The notes beneath the pieces were generated by a model. The model saw nothing but the letters and a program-made list of their open reading frames with translations. It was not told where the DNA came from and ran no database searches. Of a stretch of DNA of 64,000 nucleotides, positions 29,683 through 63,806 are shown piece by piece (within the stretch, counting starts at the first letter, position 1; every line of letters starts with the position of its first letter). Location: NCBI GenBank assembly GCA_020248265.1, contig JADCHX010000012.1:20378-84377 (forward strand), in the 5' to 3' direction. The DNA is from Rhodocyclaceae bacterium. GTDB lineage: Bacteria; Pseudomonadota; Gammaproteobacteria; Burkholderiales; CAIKXV01. The position numbers and the translations under genes were made by a program.

Positions 29683-30779
29683 GGCGCCTGTCCGCGCGCG
29701 CGGCAGGGGCGGTGTCGCCCGTTGTCAGTCAGCGCAGGCGGCTGGCGCACGCGGGTGCCCTGCTGCTGCTGGGTACGCTCGGGGCCGGTCCCTTTCAGGC
29801 ACCGGCGGCTGCGGCCGCGCCAGCCACCGACGCGCAGGCCTGGCTCGTGCGTGCCTCTGCCGCCGCCCGTACTGCCAGCTACAGCGGTGTCTATGTCTAC
29901 ACCTGTGCCGGCATCACCGAGACCGCGCGGGTAACGCGCCTGCGCAACGCCAGTGGCGATGCCGAGCGCATCGAGTCGCTCGACGGTACTCGCCGCGAAG
30001 TGGTGCGCCGCGGTGACGAGATCCACTACTTCTTCGTCGATTCGAAGACGGTGCGGGTCGACCGGCGCGTGTCCGGCCGCAGCTTTCCCGACTTCCTGCC
30101 ACAGGATCCGTCGACCTTGGCAGCCTACTACTCGATCGAGGTGGGGCCGGTCGACCGCGCGGCGGGGCGTGCGGTCCAGGTGATCCGGCTGCGCGCGAGG
30201 GACGGCAGCCGCTACACGCAGGAGGTCTGGGCCGACCAGCAGTCGGGCCTGCCGGTGAAGCGACGAGTCATCGACGAGCGCGGGGACATCATCGAGCAGT
30301 TTGTTTTCACCGAACTGTCGGTGGGCGAGCGTCTGAGCCCCCGCCATGCGATGCCCAGCCGGCGCACCGGCTATGCGGGCTGGACAGTCGAGAACAGCTC
30401 TGTCGAGGAAGCTCGGCAGCCAGGCGCGGGCCCGCTCGCCCAGTTGCCGGCAAAAGGGGGCGATGCTGCTCCAGCGCCCTTCCCGGAGCCGCGGATGCTG
30501 CCGCCGGGCTTCCGCAAGGTGATACAGGTATCGCGCACGTTGCCAGGGCACGATCGCCCGGTTATGCAGTCCGTCTACAGCGATGGCCTCGCCACGCTTT
30601 CCGTATTTGTCGATCCCGACGTGGCACGCGTGGCTGGCCATGAGGGCATCAGTCAGCGGGGAGCGGTCGGCGTCATCACCCGCGCTGCGGGAGACCGGGC
30701 GGTGATCACCGTCGGTGAAGTGCCTGCAGCCACGCTGCGCAAGGTGGCCGATTCCATCGGTCCGCTCGCTTCGCGCTGA
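29679..30779 (+). CDS. rseB: Sigma-E regulatory protein RseB/MucB
   Basis: ATGA overlap with rseA, a signal peptide, and the AQAWLVRASAAARTASYSGVYVY block typical of the MucB/RseB N-domain. Confidence 0.75.
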   Translation: MRRLSARAAGAVSPVVSQRRRLAHAGALLLLGTLGAGPFQAPAAAAAPATDAQAWLVRASAAARTASYSGVYVYTCAGITETARVTRLRNASGDAERIESLDGTRREVVRRGDEIHYFFVDSKTVRVDRRVSGRSFPDFLPQDPSTLAAYYSIEVGPVDRAAGRAVQVIRLRARDGSRYTQEVWADQQSGLPVKRRVIDERGDIIEQFVFTELSVGERLSPRHAMPSRRTGYAGWTVENSSVEEARQPGAGPLAQLPAKGGDAAPAPFPEPRMLPPGFRKVIQVSRTLPGHDRPVMQSVYSDGLATLSVFVDPDVARVAGHEGISQRGAVGVITRAAGDRAVITVGEVPAATLRKVADSIGPLASR

Positions 30780-32662: not shown

Positions 32663-33106
32663 ATGACTGTCACTGCTTCCGTTGCCCACATAGTCGAGAC
32701 TGCCCTTGGCGGGCTCGGCTACGAACTGGTCGACCTCGAGTTCGGCCAGGGGCGCTCGCGGTTGCTGCGGGTGTTCATCGACAAGCCGGAAGGCATCGGC
32801 CTCGCGGATTGCGAACGGGTCAGCCGCCACCTCACGCAACTGTTCGCGGTCGAGTCGATCGACTACGACCGGCTCGAAGTGTCGTCGCCGGGCCTGGACC
32901 GACCGCTCAGGAAAGTTGCCGATTTCCAGCGCTTTGCGGGTGAGCAGGTCAGGGTCACCATGCGGGCGCCGATCGCCGGGCGGCGCAATTTTTCCGGCGC
33001 GATTCGCGCGGCAGACGAGCTTGCGTTCGAGCTCGACGTCGAAGGTCAACCGGTCAGGCTGGAGTTCGCGAATCTCGATCGCGCCCGGCTCGTTCCGAAG
33101 CTGTAG
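32663..33106 (+). CDS. rimP: Ribosome maturation factor RimP
   Basis: GYELVDLEF...[18 protein letters not shown]......[15 protein letters not shown], positioned upstream of nusA. Confidence 0.85.
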
Positions 33107-34699: not shown

Positions 34700-37531
34700 A
34701 TGGCAGAAATGAACGTATCCCAATTCGCGAAAGAGCTGGGCGTGCAGCCAGCACTGCTCCTCGAGCAGTTGCAGGCCGCCGGCGTCAGCCGGCCGCTCGC
34801 GGAGAACGCCCCGCTGACCGAACAGGACAAGACCCAGTTGCTCGACTACCTGCGCCGTTCGCATGGTGCTAACGAGAGCAAGGGCAAGATCACGCTGACC
34901 CGCAAGCAGACGACCGAGATCAAGAAGGCCGATGCCACCGGCCGCCCGCGCACGATTCAGGTCGAGGTGCGCAAGAAGCGCGTGTTCGTCAAGCGCGATG
35001 CGAACGAGGCGGTACCTGCGGCAGAGGCCACCGCCGCCGCCCTGCCGGCGGCCGCCGAGGCTGTACCGGAAGCGATCGTCGAAGATGTCGTCGTCGCTGC
35101 GCCGGTACCTGAGCCGATGCCGGAGCCGGAGCCAGAACCCGTCGTGGTTGCCTCGCCCGAGCCCGAGCCCGAGCCCGAGCCTGAGTCCGTACCTGTGCCT
35201 GTGCCGATGGCAGACGCGGCGATCACACCCGAGGCGCCCGTCCCGGCCACCGAGTCCGCCGCGCCAGCGGCAGCGACCCCGACGCGGACGGTCGTGCGCA
35301 AGCGTCCGGGCCCGGTCCTGGACGCGGCTGAACTGGCCCTGCGCGAAGCCGAGACAAAGCGGGCCGAAGCCCTCGCTGCACGCCAGCTGGCCGAACTGAA
35401 GGCCAAGCAGGAAGCCGAAGCCCGTCGTCGGCAGGCAGCCGCGGCGGCGGCGCTCGCCGCCGCCCAGCCGGCCCCGGCGCCGGCCGCTGCGCCCGCGGCC
35501 ACCGCCAGGCCGGGCACCGAACAGCTGGCGCCGACCCAGCCCGGCACGCTGCACAAGCCGATCGTGAAGCCCGAAGACCGGGCAGCGAAGGCCGAGAAGA
35601 AGACCGTCAAGAAGAAGGAAGTCACGCCCTGGCAAGACCCGAACCTCCGGCGCCGTTCGATCAAGACGCGCGGCGACGTGATGGGCGCCCATGGTTGGCG
35701 TGGCGGACGCGGGCCGGGTGGCCGTGGCCGTGGCGACGACGACGCTTCCAGTGGATACAGCGCGCCCGAGCCGGTCGTGCATGAGGTGCTGGTTCCCGAG
35801 ACGATCACCGTCGGCGCGCTGGCGCAGAAGATGTCGATCAAGGCGGCCGAGGTGATCAAGCACCTGATGAAGCTCGGCACGATGGCGACCATCAACCAGG
35901 TGCTCGACCAGGAGACTGCAATGATCCTGGTAGGCGAACTCGGCCATGTCGCGAAGCCGGCCAAGCTGGACGATCCGGAGGCGTTCCTGGTCGTGACCGA
36001 GCCGCACGCCGAAGTGGTGCTGGAGCCGCGCGCCCCGGTGGTGACGGTAATGGGCCACGTCGACCATGGCAAGACGTCGCTGCTCGACTACATTCGCCGC
36101 ACCCGCGTCGCCAGCGGCGAGGCTGGAGGCATCACCCAGCATATCGGCGCCTATCACGTCGAAACGCCGCAGGGCATCATCACCTTCCTCGATACCCCGG
36201 GCCATGAGGCGTTCACCGCGATGCGTGCGCGTGGCGCCAAGGCCACCGACGTCGTCGTGCTGGTCGTTGCCGCGGACGACGGCGTGATGCCGCAGACCGT
36301 CGAGGCTGTCCGCCATGCGAAGGCTGCAGAAGTCCCGCTGCTGGTCGCGATGAACAAGATCGACAAGCCGGAAGCAAATGTCGAGCGCATCAAGCAAGAG
36401 CTTGCAGCCCAGGGCGTCGTGCCCGAAGACTGGGGCGGCGACACGCAGTTCATCGGAGTGTCCGCGAAGACCGGGCAGGGCATCGACAAGTTGCTCGAAG
36501 GCCTGCTCCTTCAGGTCGAGATCCTCGAGCTCAAGGCACCGCGCGTCGCACCGGCACGCGGCCTGGTGATCGAGGCACGGCTCGACAAGGGTCGCGGCCC
36601 GGTCGCCACCGTGCTGGTGCAGTCGGGTACGCTCAAGCGCGGCGACGTGATCCTCGCCGGTACCTCGTTCGGCAAGGTGCGCGCGATGCTCGACGAGAAC
36701 GGCAAGCAGGTCGCGGAGGCGGGGCCATCGATCCCGGTCGAGATTCAGGGTCTGTCCGACATCCCGAGCGCCGGCGAGGAAGTGGTTGCGCTGTCCGACG
36801 AGCGCAGGGCACGCGAGATCGCGCTGTTCCGGCAGGGCAAGTTTCGCGATGTGCGGCTCGCGAAGCAGCAGTCTGCCAAGCTCGAGAACCTGTTCGACAA
36901 CGTCGGCGAGGGCGCGGCGAAATCCCTCGCGCTGGTCATCAAGGCGGACGTGCAGGGTTCGGTCGAGGCCCTGGTGCAGTCGTTGCTCAAGCTGTCCACC
37001 GACGAGGTGAAGGTAACCATCGTGCACAGCGCGGTCGGGGCGATCACCGAGTCTGACGTCAACCTCGCGCTCGCCTCTCGGGCGGTGGTCATCGGCTTCA
37101 ACACGCGTGCAGACGCCACCGCGCGCAAGCTTATCGAGAGTTCCGGCGTCGACGTCCGTTACCACGACATCATCTATGACGTGGTCGATGAGGTGAAGGC
37201 TGCGCTGTCGGGCATGCTGACGCCCGACCGTAAGGAGTCGATCCTCGGGCTGGTGGAGATCCGCCAGGTGTTCCGCATTTCGAAGGTCGGCGTGGTCGCC
37301 GGCTGCTACGTGACCGAAGGCCTGGTCAAGCGGGGCGCGCAGATCAGGCTGCTGCGCGACAACGTCGTGGTCTACACCGGGGAACTCGATTCGCTGAAGC
37401 GCTTCAAGGACGACGTGCGTGAAGTCAAGGCCGGCTTCGAGTGCGGCCTGTCTTTGAAGAACTACAACGACATCGCGGTCGGCGACCAGCTCGAGGCGTT
37501 CGAGGTGGTCGAAGTCGAGCGTTCCCTGTAG
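34700..37531 (+). CDS. infB: Translation initiation factor IF-2
   Basis: A Pro/Ala/Glu-rich linker is followed by the G domain [24 protein letters not shown] and NKID, then the C-terminal IF-2 domains. Confidence 0.95.
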
Positions 37532-59176: not shown

Positions 59177-60766
59177 ATGACAGCCGCGAGCCATGACTGC
59201 ATCCTGATCCTCGATTTCGGTTCGCAGGTGACCCAGCTGATCGCACGCCGCGTGCGAGAGGCGAACGTGTACTGTGAAGTGCATCCGTGCGACCTGCCGG
59301 AGGCCGAGATCCGCCGGATCGCGCCCAAGGGCGTGATCCTGTCCGGCAGCCACATGTCGGCCTACGAAGAGTCGACCGATCGCGCGCCCCAGACGGTATT
59401 CGACCTCGGCGTGCCGGTGCTGGGTATCTGTTACGGCATGCAGACGATGGCGCAGCAACTGGGCGGCAAGGTCGAGAGCGGCGCGAACCGCGAGTTCGGC
59501 TTCGCCGAAGTTCGGGCGCGCGGCCACACATGGCTGCTCGACGGCATCGAGGATGCACGCAACGCCGAAGGGCACGGCCTGCTCAAGGTCTGGATGAGCC
59601 ACGGCGACAAGGTCACCGAACTGCCGCCTGGCTTCAAGCTGATGGCCTCCACCGACAGCTGCCCGATCGCAGGCATGGCCGACGAGGCACGCAACTTCTA
59701 CGGCGTGCAGTTCCACCCCGAGGTGACGCATACGCTGCAGGGCGGGCGGATTCTCGAGCGCTTCGTGATCGACATCTGCGAATGCGCGCCCGACTGGGTG
59801 ATGAGCGACTACGTCGCCGAGGCGAGCGAGCAGGTGAAAGCGCGGGTGGGCAGCGAAGAGGTGATCCTCGGCCTGTCCGGCGGCGTCGATTCGGCGGTGG
59901 CCGCTGCCCTCATCCACAAGGCGATTGGCGACCGCCTGACCTGCATCTTCGTCGATACAGGACTGCTGCGGCTGGGCGAGGGCGACCAGGTGATGGAGAC
60001 GCTGAACCGCCACCTCGGTGTGAAGGTGATCCGCATCGACGCCGGCCCACGCTTCCTCGGCGCATTGGAAGGCTGCGCCGACCCGGAAGCCAAGCGCAAG
60101 ATCATCGGTCGCGAGTTCGTGCATGTGTTCCAGGAAGAAGCCGCGAAGCTGCCGAACGCGAAGTGGCTGGCGCAGGGCACGATCTATCCGGACGTGATCG
60201 AGTCGGCCGGGGCCAAGACGAAGAAGGCCACGACCATCAAGAGCCACCACAACGTCGGTGGCCTGCCAGACACGCTGCACCTGAAGCTGCTCGAGCCGCT
60301 GCGCGAACTGTTCAAGGACGAGGTGCGCGAGCTCGGCCTCGCACTCGGGCTGCCGCGCGAGATGGTGTTCCGGCATCCATTCCCGGGACCGGGGCTGGGC
60401 GTGCGCATCCTCGGCGAAGTGAAGCCCAAGTATGCAGAACTGCTGCGCCGCGCCGATGCGATCTTCATCGACGAACTGCGCAAGACCTCGCACGAAGGAG
60501 TGAGCTGGTACGACCTGACCAGCCAGGCCTTCGCCGTGTTCCTGCCGGTGAAGGCGGTGGGCGTGATGGGCGACGGACGCACGTACGAGTATGTGGTTGC
60601 GCTGCGCGCGGTGCAGACCCAGGATTTCATGACTGCGCACTGGGCGCACCTGCCGCACGAACTGCTCGGGCGCGTGTCGAACCGGATCATCAATGAAGTA
60701 CGAGGGATAAACCGGGTCGTTTACGACATATCGGGGAAGCCGCCGGCGACGATCGAGTGGGAGTAG
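59177..60766 (+). CDS. guaA: GMP synthase (glutamine-hydrolysing)
   Basis: GATase domain ([14 protein letters not shown]), ATP-PPase SGGVDS motif, and C-terminal dimerisation domain ending ...PPATIEWE. Confidence 0.95.
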
Positions 60767-60767
60767 G
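60753..60767 (+). repeat. Left direct repeat (guaA 3' end)
   Basis: TCGAGTGGGAGTAGG, identical to 63328-63342. Confidence 0.8.
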
Positions 60768-60921
60768 TCGTCGAGGGCTGAATTAGAGCGTATTAAAAAT
60801 CAACAGGTTATGTTTTTTATCACCTATCCGAGAGACATCATGAACAGGATAGAGGTCACGGTCTAAGTACATGAATCGAATAGGGATGGGTCCTTTTTGA
60901 CGCTTCCTTCAACAAAAAGGG

Positions 60922-61087
60922 TTGACGTCAGATTGACGGTATTCTTGACGGTAGAAATTCGCGCCGATGTAGTTGCCGATAATCTACCGTCACACGAACT
61001 CCGGACCTGACGGCAGAAAAATCGACAGCAATCGCTGGCAAAACATGAAGTTGCCGCTTGTGTAGCCTGAGATTTTTCGTGACGGTA
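60922..61087. repeat. Left cluster of TGACGGTA motifs
   Basis: TGACGGTA occurs at 60934, 60946 and 61080. An inverted copy lies at 60985-60992. Variants are TGACGGCA at 61008 and TGACGTCA at 60923. Several copies extend to tTGACGGTAGAA. Confidence 0.8.
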
Positions 61088-61178
61088 GAAGTTGTGGTTC
61101 ATGGAAAAAGGCATCCACGGCCAACGTCGCCTCTATCCGTTGCTGGAGTTTTCGCCTCGCAGGGAAGGGGCCTTAGCG

Positions 61179-61221
61179 TTAGTACCAAAAACAATAAACG
61201 ATAACATTGGATATGTTATCG
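61179..61221 (+). promoter_or_regulatory. Candidate promoter with overlapping inverted-repeat operator of the wHTH/NTase operon
   Basis: TTAGTA (61179-61184), 17 nt spacer, TAACAT (61202-61207). The perfect 9-bp inverted repeat CGATAACAT-TGGAT-ATGTTATCG (61199-61221) covers the -10 element. Confidence 0.45.
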
Positions 61222-61257
61222 TGCAGGGTCCTTGTTTCACTTAGGCCCTCAATCAGC

Positions 61258-62241
61258 ATGGAAGCCGCCGTTCGCGCGTACCTGAAGAACACGCTCGGAA
61301 TCGACGCTCCGACCACCCTCTGGTCGGGCGTGGGCAGCTTGCCGTACTTCCTCGTGGATGCCTTCGAACTGAAGGCTCTGGCGATCCTGGGTCACCCCGT
61401 CCTGCTCGCCATCGACAAGCGAGCCGATCGCCCCGGCCTTGCCAGCATTCGCGCGCAGATCGACAAGATCCGCGAGGTAACCGGGCTCCCGGTGCTTTAC
61501 GCAACCGAGGCACTGGCCTCCTACGAACGCAAGCGGCTCATCGAGCAGAAGGTACCCTTCGTCGTCCCTGGCAACCAGCTCTATCTGCCCGACCTTGGCG
61601 TGGATCTGCGGGAGTACTTTCGCAAGCCGGCGACGCAGCCCCAGAGCGAGCTCAGCCCGGCCGCCCAGGCCATGCTGATCGCAGTGCTGCTGGGCAAGCC
61701 GTGGCGGGGGGAGTGGGAGCCTGCCGAGGTGCTCGGCCGTCTCGGCTATACCGCCATGACCGCCTCGCGCGCCTCGCGCGAGCTGGTGGCAACCGGGATA
61801 GCGCGTTCGGACAACGTCGCGAGGGTGCGGCGGCTGAAGACCGAGCGCACCGCCCGCGAGACCTGGGAGCATATCAAGCCCCTGCTGCGCAACCCCGTGA
61901 AACGCCGGGTCTGGGTGCTGCCGACCAGCGATCTTGTCGTGCCGGAGCTCAGGCTTGCGGGTCTCAGCGCCCTTGCGCGGCAGTCGATGCTGGTCGAACC
62001 CTCTTGGCCGACTTACGCGCTCAGCCCTTCGCAATGGAAGCTCGCTTCCCAGCAGGGCGCGAAGACGGTGCCCGAGCCTGAGCCCGGGGCCCTCCAGATG
62101 GAGCTTTGGAACTACAGCCCGGCCTTGGTGCCGGACACTTCGCTGGTCGATCCGCTGTCGCTGATGCTGAGCCTGCAGAGCGATGGCGACGATCGGGTAC
62201 AGCAGGCGCTGGCCGAGCTTGAGGAGCACTTGCCGTGGTGA
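61258..62241 (+). CDS. Winged-helix DNA-binding protein, AbiEi-like antitoxin candidate (atypically long)
   Basis: 327 aa counted from ATG 61258 (the track ORF starts at 61207). A central MarR/AbiEi-like wHTH region is present (SPAAQAMLIAVLL...EVLGRLGYTAMTASRASRELVATGIA). It overlaps the downstream NTase gene by 4-7 nt. Confidence 0.55.
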   Translation: MEAAVRAYLKNTLGIDAPTTLWSGVGSLPYFLVDAFELKALAILGHPVLLAIDKRADRPGLASIRAQIDKIREVTGLPVLYATEALASYERKRLIEQKVPFVVPGNQLYLPDLGVDLREYFRKPATQPQSELSPAAQAMLIAVLLGKPWRGEWEPAEVLGRLGYTAMTASRASRELVATGIARSDNVARVRRLKTERTARETWEHIKPLLRNPVKRRVWVLPTSDLVVPELRLAGLSALARQSMLVEPSWPTYALSPSQWKLASQQGAKTVPEPEPGALQMELWNYSPALVPDTSLVDPLSLMLSLQSDGDDRVQQALAELEEHLPW

Positions 62242-63011
62242 AAGGCCTGGATGTCTTTCGGAGCTGGTTCGCCGCGCATGGGGATGAGTTCGTCCTGATC
62301 GGCGGTACGGCCGCAACCCTCGCCCTAGAAGAGGCGGGGCTTGAGTTCCGCGCCACGAAGGATCTCGACATCGTGCTGCATGTGGAGGCTCTGACCCCGC
62401 GCTTTGGCGAGGTGTTCTGGAGGTTCATCGATGCGGGTGGCTACGAGATCCGCCAGGCCGCCGACACGGGCAGGCCGGTCTTCTATCGATTCCAGAAGCC
62501 GGGCAACCCGAGCTTTCCGGCGATGCTGGAACTGTTCAGCCGCGCGCCCGAAGGCCTCACGCTTGCGCAGGGCAGTCACCTGACCCCCATCCCGATCGAT
62601 GAGGCGGTGGAAAGCCTTTCGGCGATCCTTCTTGACGAGGACTACTACGACTTCATCCTGACCGGCAGGCGCGATCTCGATGGTCTGCCTTGGGTGGGCG
62701 AGGATCGGTTGATCCCGCTGAAGGCGAGCGCCTGGCTGGATCTTGGGCAGCGCCTCGCCCGCGGCGAGCAGGTGGATTCGCGCAATGTGCGCAAGCACGC
62801 GAACGACATCCTTCGACTGTCCCAACTGCTCGCACCCGAGGTTCGGGTGCCGCTGGTGCCCAGGATCGCCCAGGACTTGAGCCGCTTCCTCGATGCCATC
62901 GAGACCGATCCGTCGATTACGCCGGCGAGCGTAGGCGTGCGCGGTTCCCTGAAGGACGTGATCGGCCGGATCGCGCTGGCCTACTTGCTCGATCGGGGCG
63001 CTCAGCCATGA
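62235..63011 (+). CDS. Nucleotidyltransferase-fold protein, AbiEii-like toxin candidate
   Basis: Minimal NTase signature LIGGTAATLALEEAGLEFRATKDLDIVL (GG...DxD) and a later K...A...R...KHANDILRL block resembling AbiEii motif III. The start is GTG 62235 or GTG 62238. Confidence 0.6.
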   Translation: MVKGLDVFRSWFAAHGDEFVLIGGTAATLALEEAGLEFRATKDLDIVLHVEALTPRFGEVFWRFIDAGGYEIRQAADTGRPVFYRFQKPGNPSFPAMLELFSRAPEGLTLAQGSHLTPIPIDEAVESLSAILLDEDYYDFILTGRRDLDGLPWVGEDRLIPLKASAWLDLGQRLARGEQVDSRNVRKHANDILRLSQLLAPEVRVPLVPRIAQDLSRFLDAIETDPSITPASVGVRGSLKDVIGRIALAYLLDRGAQP

Positions 63012-63034
63012 CGCGGACGGTCAAGGTCGGCTGT

Positions 63035-63266
63035 TGACGGTAGAAAAAGCGCGTGAAAATCACGTTCAGACAAGCACTTAGATTGCTCGATGACGGTACG
63101 ACGAAAGCTGGTCGGAGGCTCGAAAGAGCAGGGTGGATGCTGTGCTTCGATGACCTCGCAAGGCCTGATAGTCCTCGATAGATCCCGAAAGGTGTATCCC
63201 GCGCCGATCGCCCGGAAACCCGCGCCAATGCTGAACCTCATCAAGATGACGGTATCTTTGACGGTA
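63035..63266 (+). repeat. Right cluster of TGACGGTA motifs
   Basis: TGACGGTA occurs at 63035, 63091, 63247 and 63259, all on the + strand. The last two are 12 bp apart, as are the two at 60934/60946. Confidence 0.8.
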
Positions 63267-63327
63267 TCCAGTAGCCTTCCGCCCAAGAACGCATGGCGCA
63301 ACAAGGACTTAGCGGCTCAATTGATGT

Positions 63328-63342
63328 TCGAGTGGGAGTAGG
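63328..63342 (+). repeat. Right direct repeat (vestigial guaA 3' end)
   Basis: TCGAGTGGGAGTAGG, preceded by codons reading ...FEWE-stop. Confidence 0.8.
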
Positions 63343-63458
63343 GGACATGTTCCCGGTGGCGACGGCTCCCGGGATACGAGTCTGGGCACCGAGCACGCGG
63401 TAACGTGCCGACACCGCAGTGACGCGCTCCTTCCGGAACAGGGTGTGGGAAATCGCAG

Positions 63459-63806
63459 ATGGGTGAAACGCTACTGAAGTTGGTCGTTGTCGGTTTCGGC
63501 ATCTGGTTTCTCGTGGGTCACGTGTCCGATGCCCTCACGCGAGGTTGCGCGCGCCTGCGCGGAACCAGGGAGTTCACCGTGGCGCAGCCATGGAGGTTCT
63601 CAGTCGCCCTGGGGCTGAACATTGCGTTCGGCCTCTTGCTGTTCAGCGTCCCCTTCTTCGCTGACGCCGTGGTTTGGGCCGTTCCGGGTTGGATCATGCA
63701 CCGTGCAACGACGGCAGGCCTTCCCTGGTTGGCGGTGATGGTCACCGTCACGGTGTATGTCGTCGCTGCCACGCGCATGCTTGTCTTCATGGCCACGCGG
63801 AAGTGA
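63459..63806 (+). CDS. Hypothetical small membrane protein
   Basis: 115 aa with 3-4 hydrophobic helices and no recognisable family. It overlaps a minus-strand partial ORF running in from the window edge, so the coding call is tentative. Confidence 0.35.
   Translation: MGETLLKLVVVGFGIWFLVGHVSDALTRGCARLRGTREFTVAQPWRFSVALGLNIAFGLLLFSVPFFADAVVWAVPGWIMHRATTAGLPWLAVMVTVTVYVVAATRMLVFMATRK

Follow-up and report, generated by a model that had tools for sequence, protein, structure and literature searches.

The octamer TGACGGTA recurs in two clusters just inside the ends of a small genomic island inserted at the 3' end of guaA in a Rhodocyclaceae bacterium (contig JADCHX010000012.1 of assembly GCA_020248265.1, positions 20,378 to 84,377; these 64,000 nucleotides are called the window below, and positions are those of the window). 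From comparative sequence analysis, we consider it very likely that these octamers are the arm-type sites of a heterobivalent tyrosine integrase of the P4/IntSXT group. An earlier model-made reading of the letters alone (the sequence-only reading) had proposed arm-type sites, with iterons bound by a winged helix-turn-helix (wHTH) protein of the island as the alternative. The first proposal is supported: the same 12-bp-spaced pair of octamers is found upstream of integrase genes with an arm-binding domain and 82-84 bp before attR cores in many species, the layout is that of the annotated arm repeats of phage P4, and no columns of the arm are better conserved than those of the sites. All cis elements of such a system, octamers and cores, are present and perfect in the window; the enzyme is missing.

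The ends of the island are real, as had been read from the letters. A 15-bp stretch from the 3' end of the target gene is repeated directly at the two boundaries of the insert (2,575 bp, 60768-63342), and within the insert lie eight of the nine exact matches to TGACGGTA found on both strands of the window (60934, 60946, 60985 on the minus strand, 61080, 63035, 63091, 63247 and 63259); the ninth is isolated at 36042. In 100 dinucleotide-preserving shuffles, by comparison, the octamer turned up 0.58 times on average and at most 3 times. The clusters, the pairs with 12-bp spacing (60934/60946 and 63247/63259), the inverted copy and both variant copies stand where the sequence-only reading had placed them, and its remark that the two coding regions of the island are free of copies holds for exact matches, of which they contain 0. 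Copies with one mismatch are only weakly enriched across the window (41 vs. 25.9 expected), and one of them, at 61749 on the minus strand, lies inside the wHTH gene. The sites and cores are as follows:

60753-60767, plus strand: attL core TCGAGTGGGAGTAGG, formed by the last codons and stop of guaA, with the same 15-mer at 63328-63342
60923-60930, plus strand: variant site TGACGTCA, 11 bp ahead of the left pair, its sequence read directly
60934-60953, plus strand: left-arm pair TGACGGTATTCTTGACGGTA, P'-type (integrase-proximal), 12-bp period, preceding the integrase gene (int) in the relatives L071, L014, L050, L107 and L148
60985-60992, minus strand: inverted copy, +51 from the pair start (+52/+53 in the relatives)
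61008-61015, plus strand: direct variant TGACGGCA, +74 from the pair start; the direct copy of the relatives stands just ahead of the int ATG
61080-61087, plus strand: extra exact site TGACGGTAGAA at the deletion junction, abutting the start of an ATPase-gene remnant
63035-63042, plus strand: right-arm (P-type) distal site 1, TTGACGGTAGAAAAA, present in 7 of the 8 relatives covering the position
63091-63098, plus strand: right-arm distal site 2, pairwise identity 0.93 across arms
63167-63191, plus strand: CGATAG x2 block, 10-bp period, between distal site 2 and the pair, conserved in 10/10 arms covering it
63247-63266, plus strand: right-arm pair TGACGGTATCTTTGACGGTA, 83 bp ahead of the GAGTGGGA of the attR core
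63328-63342, plus strand: attR core, second copy of TCGAGTGGGAGTAGG, its flanks differing on both sides (a/t before, t/g after)

We scanned one genome per species (185,579 species) for the 20-mer pair TGACGGTATYYTTGACGGTA, orienting each locus so that the pair reads forward before sorting the contexts, and found at least 120 loci where an arithmetic estimate predicts about 4 random matches for sequence of that size. Most of the matches listed belong to one of two contexts. Thirty-two loci among them are integrase-proximal, with the pair less than 400 bp upstream of the start of an integrase found by tblastn, and 28 of these 32 arms carry an inverted copy, TACCGTCA, between the pair and the int start codon; at those of them whose upstream side was checked, a tRNA or tmRNA gene stops 111-124 bp short of the pair. 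In the attR context, the pair is instead followed by a copy of a gene 3' end and the inverted copy is lacking (0/23 classified attR arms among the matches listed). Twelve of the matches listed have a guaA-type core, GAGTGGGAGTRR, 82-84 bp after the pair, a strict pattern assigns a tRNA-like 3' end to 11 others, and about 30 further ones are tRNA-type attR loci by eye alone, the copied tRNA end standing at a comparable distance from the pair; with an objective tRNA 3'-end match (ARAGORN on the fetched loci, giving a library of 45 tRNAs), 8 loci were matched. We excluded about 16 of the matches listed as coding coincidences, mostly in histidine kinases of Clostridia (...FVDGILDGT...); histidine-kinase coincidences include L007, L013, L035, L045, L075, L081 and L085.

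The integrases that accompany the motif are only 29-40% identical to each other. All four that were put through Pfam (4/4) contain the Arm-DNA-bind_3 (PF13356), Phage_int_M and Phage_integrase domains, and the N-terminal domain of one of them matches the solved arm-binding domains 3JTZ/3RMP and 3JU0; such integrases belong to the P4/IntSXT group of tyrosine recombinases (PMC8138268). Complete elements with sites at both ends are found in the viral contig L136 and in Methylotuvimicrobium KM1, a finished chromosome on which the two sets of sites form neighbouring blocks (L073 plus L029). In L136 (10.5 kb), a tRNA-Leu gene is followed after 113 bp by the pair, next come inverted copies and int, and about 10 kb further on a second pair stands about 84 bp ahead of a copy of the tRNA 3' end. 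One locus, L121, is labelled as a metagenome-assembled genome (MAG) of Bifidobacterium breve and has the same sequence type as the Cyanobium/Synechococcus contigs L012, L031, L042 and L083; it is probably mis-binned, judging from this likeness, and phylum claims that rest on MAG labels therefore call for care.

The island in the window shares this architecture: both arms bear the motif, each arm has its pair, and an inverted copy is confined to the integrase-proximal side. From guaA onwards, two betaproteobacterial MAGs (L071 and L014), two Xenorhabdus genomes (L050 and L107) and E. coli L725 (L148) share the succession of pair, inverted copy, direct copy and int ATG, and apart from the sites the five show no conservation between the guaA stop and int. 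Counted from the pair start, the sites of the relatives lie at +12, +52/53 and +67/76 (the direct copy at +67 in L071 and L014 and at +76 in L050, L107 and L148), and those of the window at +12, +51 and +74. The spacing of the right arm is fixed at about 80 bp: from the pair to GAGTGGGA it measures 83 bp in the window, 82-84 bp in the 14 other guaA-type attR arms, alphaproteobacterial genomes included, and 81 bp in the guaA island GIsul2. As a side observation, DNA related to the integrase of the Xenorhabdus guaA islands occurs in 720 of 5,426 complete E. coli genomes; in the one genome examined, E. coli L725, it sits at guaA with the TGACGGTA arm layout, beside genes for a toprim-domain protein and a helix-turn-helix regulator.

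An alignment of 11 right arms (the window, L001, L127, L129, L146, L010 x2, L119 x2, L028 and L118) separates the sites from their surroundings: the 32 site columns have a mean pairwise identity of 0.90, the remaining arm positions 0.615 and the 4-base spacer of the pair 0.34; the two sites of the pair reach 0.88 and 0.96. These arms sit behind different cargo genes, and as a module the arm therefore belongs to the island backbone, not to the cargo. A second conserved block, GGAAACCCGCGCCAATGCTGRACCTC, lies at 63214-63239; this and the CGATAG x2 block may be candidate sites of accessory factors. The reverse complement of the CGATAG block, TTTCGAGATCTATCG, is also found a few bases past the core in L118, with similar sequences past the cores in L119 and L127.

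In the mechanism that we propose, the N-terminal Arm DNA-binding domain of the integrase (PF13356, DUF4102) would contact the octamers, the C-terminal domains would cut and rejoin the core, and the enzyme would bridge arm and core in a bent nucleoprotein complex. The attL would then comprise the core at 60753-60767 with the P'-type arm (pair, inverted copy and direct copy), and the attR the P-type arm (two distal single sites and the pair 83 bp from the core) with the core at 63328-63342; recombination of attL with attR would lead to excision and that of attP with attB to integration. In intact relatives, where the P' arm lies directly upstream of int, it would probably also serve as the promoter region through which int is autoregulated, by analogy with the IntS proteins of KplE1 and ICEMlSym. 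We infer both the N-terminal domain as binder and any present-day activity from these comparisons.

The gene that should adjoin the P' arm is lacking: tblastn with two TGACGGTA-associated integrases finds no integrase in the 64-kb window, where the relatives have a gene for one with an arm-binding domain. In its place stands the end of another gene:

61083-61178, plus strand: what is left of an AAA_21 ATPase gene, its 3' end (residues 348-379 of the 398-aa protein of L001), at the right edge of the deletion

The remnant is 75% identical to the L001 protein over 32 aa (tblastn) and 88% identical to L001 2596-2677 over 82 nt (blastn), and L001, a metagenome contig, carries the full ATPase gene just upstream of the same wHTH and nucleotidyltransferase (NTase) genes and right arm. 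From this comparison, a deletion ran from just past the left (P') arm into the ATPase gene and took out int, and this deletion, ending at 61083, explains why the integrase is absent from the window; it arose inside a single island or else spanned two islands in tandem. The island is unable to move by itself, being either a fossil or dependent on a cognate integrase in trans. The picture that the sequence-only reading had drawn after phage lambda stands in its sites on both arms, with P4 and IntSXT in the place of lambda itself; it had missed the loss of the integrase and the left deletion junction. The contigs L001 and L127 stop short of the left end. The ATPase, wHTH and NTase genes may form one system, and other truncations of the ATPase gene are seen in L125 and L127.

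Several observations weigh against the assignment of the octamers to an integrase. The core-to-pair distance of the P' arm, expected to be fixed at about 112-115 bp (the pair lies 111-115 bp from the target gene end in 11/13 measured relatives, P4 included), is 167 bp from the guaA stop in the window, about 52 bp more, and the left arm may therefore no longer function as an arm. Neither the island nor the window has the cognate integrase, and with 0 matches in a metagenome scan for the triple-site pattern peculiar to the window, the int-bearing parent island was not found. The variant at 60923 has no counterpart among the aligned integrase-bearing relatives and is of uncertain status, and the site at 61080 has no positional counterpart in relatives either. 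A full-text literature search for TGACGGTA together with 'integrase' returned only primer coincidences. Finally, co-occurrence alone cannot separate binding by the integrase from binding by a conserved accessory protein.

This last point leaves room for a recombination directionality factor (RDF) of the Xis/AlpA type, or some other accessory protein, as the binder. RDFs generally bind phased direct repeats in att arms, and RdfS does bind the attP of ICEMlSymR7A, where it has no consensus motif (PMC11963761); the co-occurrence data are silent on the binder. We nevertheless regard such a protein as quite unlikely, given that the motif travels with an integrase gene whose product has an arm-binding N-terminal domain, recognised by Pfam and by solved structures, even among integrases that have diverged this far, and that the sites occupy both arms in both orientations, as do the arm sites of the P4 integrase, where RDF sites are usually confined to one arm. 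The CGATAG x2 block of the right arm would be the better candidate for an accessory factor. A transposon with subterminal transposase-binding repeats, Tn7-like or other, would also account for multiple short repeats just within the two ends of an element that has inserted after a housekeeping gene. Here, however, the copies on the left and on the right point the same way, the island has no transposase, it ends in direct repeats of the 3' end of its target gene and not in a target-site duplication with inverted ends, and the motif is constantly paired with tyrosine integrases; we rejected Tn7-like end repeats on the site orientation and the missing transposase, and give transposon ends in general next to no chance.

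The iteron alternative, in which the octamers would be operators or iterons of the island's own wHTH protein and serve cassette regulation or a replication/partition site, draws on the left cluster lying upstream of the wHTH gene and on some sources calling the 327-aa product a MarR-type DNA binder. It is very improbable, for cassette and motif occur independently of one another: homologues of the cassette (78-93% identity) are found elsewhere without TGACGGTA (L002, L126, L128, L130-L132, L144, L145 and L147), beside a parAB and PIN toxin system in L002 and with Fic genes directly past guaA in L128, L130 and L144, and about 100 loci among the matches listed have the pair motif without the wHTH protein. 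Half of the octamer sites lie downstream of the two-gene operon, and the island has neither a replication initiator gene nor an origin-like context, as neither of its two genes matches a replication family. The wHTH gene moreover has a conserved palindrome of its own, CACGATAAC-N9-GTTATCGTG in its consensus form, about 40 bp upstream of the gene start in 11/11 contexts examined (9/11 by the strict pattern; the variants in the window and in L002 by eye). In the window it has the variant form ACGATAAC-N9-GTTATCGTG and the sequence ACGATAACATTGGATATGTTATCGT:

61198-61222, no strand assigned: palindrome ACGATAACAT-N5-ATGTTATCGT ahead of the wHTH gene, flagged as a hairpin as well

From its position and conservation, this palindrome is the likely operator of the 327-aa protein. 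The partners of the gene vary (L128 1854-4113, L129, L146, L147 and L002) between Fic proteins, AbiEi/AbiEii pairs and the 258-aa NTase, and one of its contexts is plasmid-like, with ParA/ParB and PIN-PhdYeFM; it behaves as a mobile cargo gene.

With the octamers taken as integrase arm sites, it is about an even matter whether they are now inert relics, in an island that is a fixed remnant without an acting integrase, or still usable in trans. For decay speak the deletion of int, the aberrant left-arm spacing (167 vs. 111-115 bp) and the more decayed versions in L125 and L145, which have degenerate sites and no core. Against it, the eight octamers and both 15-bp cores are still perfect, the sites of related integrase-less islands are far more conserved than their flanks, which suggests continuing selection or a very recent loss, and the GIsul2 Int moves a unit that is bounded by att sites and lacks an integrase (PMC9376610).

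The genes that the island was inserted beside and those that it carries are:

59177-60766: guaA, the target gene
61258-62241, plus strand: cargo gene 1, encoding the 327-aa protein (the wHTH protein of the sequence-only reading, 'MarR family' in some sources), no Pfam domain
62235-63011, plus strand: cargo gene 2, encoding a 258-aa protein, its start overlapping the stop of cargo gene 1

Pfam and PADLOC searches with the two island proteins and the small open reading frames (ORFs) gave a single sub-threshold match, that of the 258-aa protein to the AbiEii nucleotidyltransferase family (PF08843, E = 8e-4, under the curated cut-off), and when the whole island was compared with plasmids by BLAST, the only matches, of 66-70%, covered part of the NTase gene, with no related island among them. 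The left-arm region is AT-rich (GC 0.455 vs. 0.67 for the window). The ORF at 60863-61114 on the minus strand, which had already been called probably non-coding, has a GC content at third codon positions (GC3) of 0.46, compared with 0.80-0.86 for guaA and the two island genes, and no credible Pfam match, both of which agree with that call. A further ORF of 83 aa, across the right arm at 63090-63341 (GC3 0.69, no Pfam match), runs into the core repeat and for this reason ends ...FEWE*, in frame with the guaA end ...IEWE*; it is probably not coding either. A resemblance of TTGACG to a -35 box was dropped, as a sigma-70 promoter scan of 60700-63500 gave no promoter-like site.

The window is not alone in carrying an integrase-less unit at guaA. 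In L010, L118 and L119, the attR of a first island is followed by a second short module of 1-2.9 kb (reverse strand 246-2960 in L010, 1310-2370 in L118 and 99-2985 in L119), whose cargo is HigBA, a TetR regulator, or a hydrolase or AbiEi-like gene; each module ends in its own TGACGGTA right arm, with a second guaA-type core in L010 and L119, and none has int or left-arm sites. The guaA island of about 5 kb in L128/L129 is likewise integrase-less. We tentatively consider, as a possibility that we hold to be somewhat doubtful, that such islands are working hitch-hikers, cassettes that are captured, stacked and excised at guaA by P4-family integrases acting in trans. Small defence or toxin-antitoxin cassettes (wHTH and NTase here; HigBA, AbiE and Fic in L010, L118, L119 and L128/L129) would then each keep a P-type arm and a core. 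If so, guaA would be a cassette-exchange platform like that on which the GIsul2 Int moves CR2-sul2, and a single arm-site code, TGACGGTA, would serve integrases of about 30-40% identity in genomes labelled as several phyla.

Features of this kind are textbook material, the architecture of the family is annotated for P4, and the accepted view of how such systems work is unchanged; the literature searched has no description of the exact motif, of its fixed spacing or of its occurrence across many genomes with integrases only 29-40% identical. For the annotation of the locus, our results make it a 2.6-kb integrase-less guaA island whose ends are att arms, with octamers that are unlikely to be regulatory sites of the cargo and an 83-aa left-arm ORF that is probably no gene. 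More generally, TGACGGTAT(YY)TTGACGGTA at a fixed distance from the end of a target gene offers a cheap and specific marker of the ends of P4-family islands of a large class, usable where the integrase is missing or the contig short.

Among characterised systems, phage P4 (NC_001609) is the closest in layout: its annotated 'attP arm sequence repeat' features form a pair with 12-bp period on each arm, an inverted arm repeat overlaps the int ATG, 112 bp separate the core from the pair nearer to int (111-115 bp in 11/13 int- or guaA-adjacent elements), the integrase has an arm-type DNA-binding domain, and insertion is at a conserved gene, in its 3' end. It differs in the motif (TGGGGGCAT vs. TGACGGTA), in its target, a tRNA-Leu gene, in keeping the int that the island of the window has lost, and in the distance of the pair from the core, which is 167 bp on the left of the window. 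The att-flanked condition without integrase and transfer genes is, in turn, that of the CIMEs of Streptococcus thermophilus (ICESt1/ICESt3), att-flanked elements without recombination genes that undergo tandem accretion at att sites; the tandem integrase-less modules in L010, L118 and L119 resemble them in this respect as well, and host clade and integrase family are different.

ICEMlSymR7A, which targets a phe-tRNA gene, shares a motif of the form TGnnGGTAT and sites (P1-P5) on both sides of the core, and is unlike the island of the window in the central bases of the motif and in being a 502-kb integrative and conjugative element with its own integrase and RDF. The five arm-type sites of its IntS in attP (consensus TGKTGGTATC) are all reported to be needed for integration, and IntS, encoded directly downstream of attL, represses its own promoter in attL (PMC11963761). 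For the IntS of KplE1, attL overlaps the integrase promoter, an organisation that is described as widespread and goes with negative autoregulation (PMC2951348); arm-type sites lie there, as in the window, between the target gene and the int start, with the differences that its arm motif contains TAAA and that the window has no int to regulate.

Several element families, PIMEs among them, use an attB beside guaA in Pseudomonadota (bioRxiv 10.64898/2026.01.12.698999). The PIMEs are islands at guaA, as is that of E. coli L725 with its TGACGGTA arm layout, and they differ from the island of the window in encoding integrase, replication and mobilization functions. GIsul2 has the same target gene and the same core, GAGTGGGA having been proposed as core for this guaA-targeting island (PMC9376610), and the integrases of GIsul2 and L071 share 49% identity. 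GIsul2 is unlike the island of the window in its arm motif, CATGGTAT, and in its 15 kb with int, alpA and rep genes. A CATGGTATTTTTCATGGTA pair with 12-bp period precedes its core by 81 bp at both attR and the internal attLR, and on plasmid NC_022371 (L123) we find the pair CATGGTATTTTTCATGGYA at 29772-29793 and 33064-33085, before the attLR and attR cores; by their placement, these are probably its arm sites, which the paper on its integrase does not mention (0 occurrences of 'arm'; PMC9376610). The GIsul2 Int moves the integrase-less CR2-sul2, bounded by att sites (PMC9376610), and the modules in L010, L118 and L119 resemble this attLR-attR unit. CATGGTAT pairs at attR and attLR would explain how the integrase of GIsul2 moves the CR2-sul2 resistance unit.

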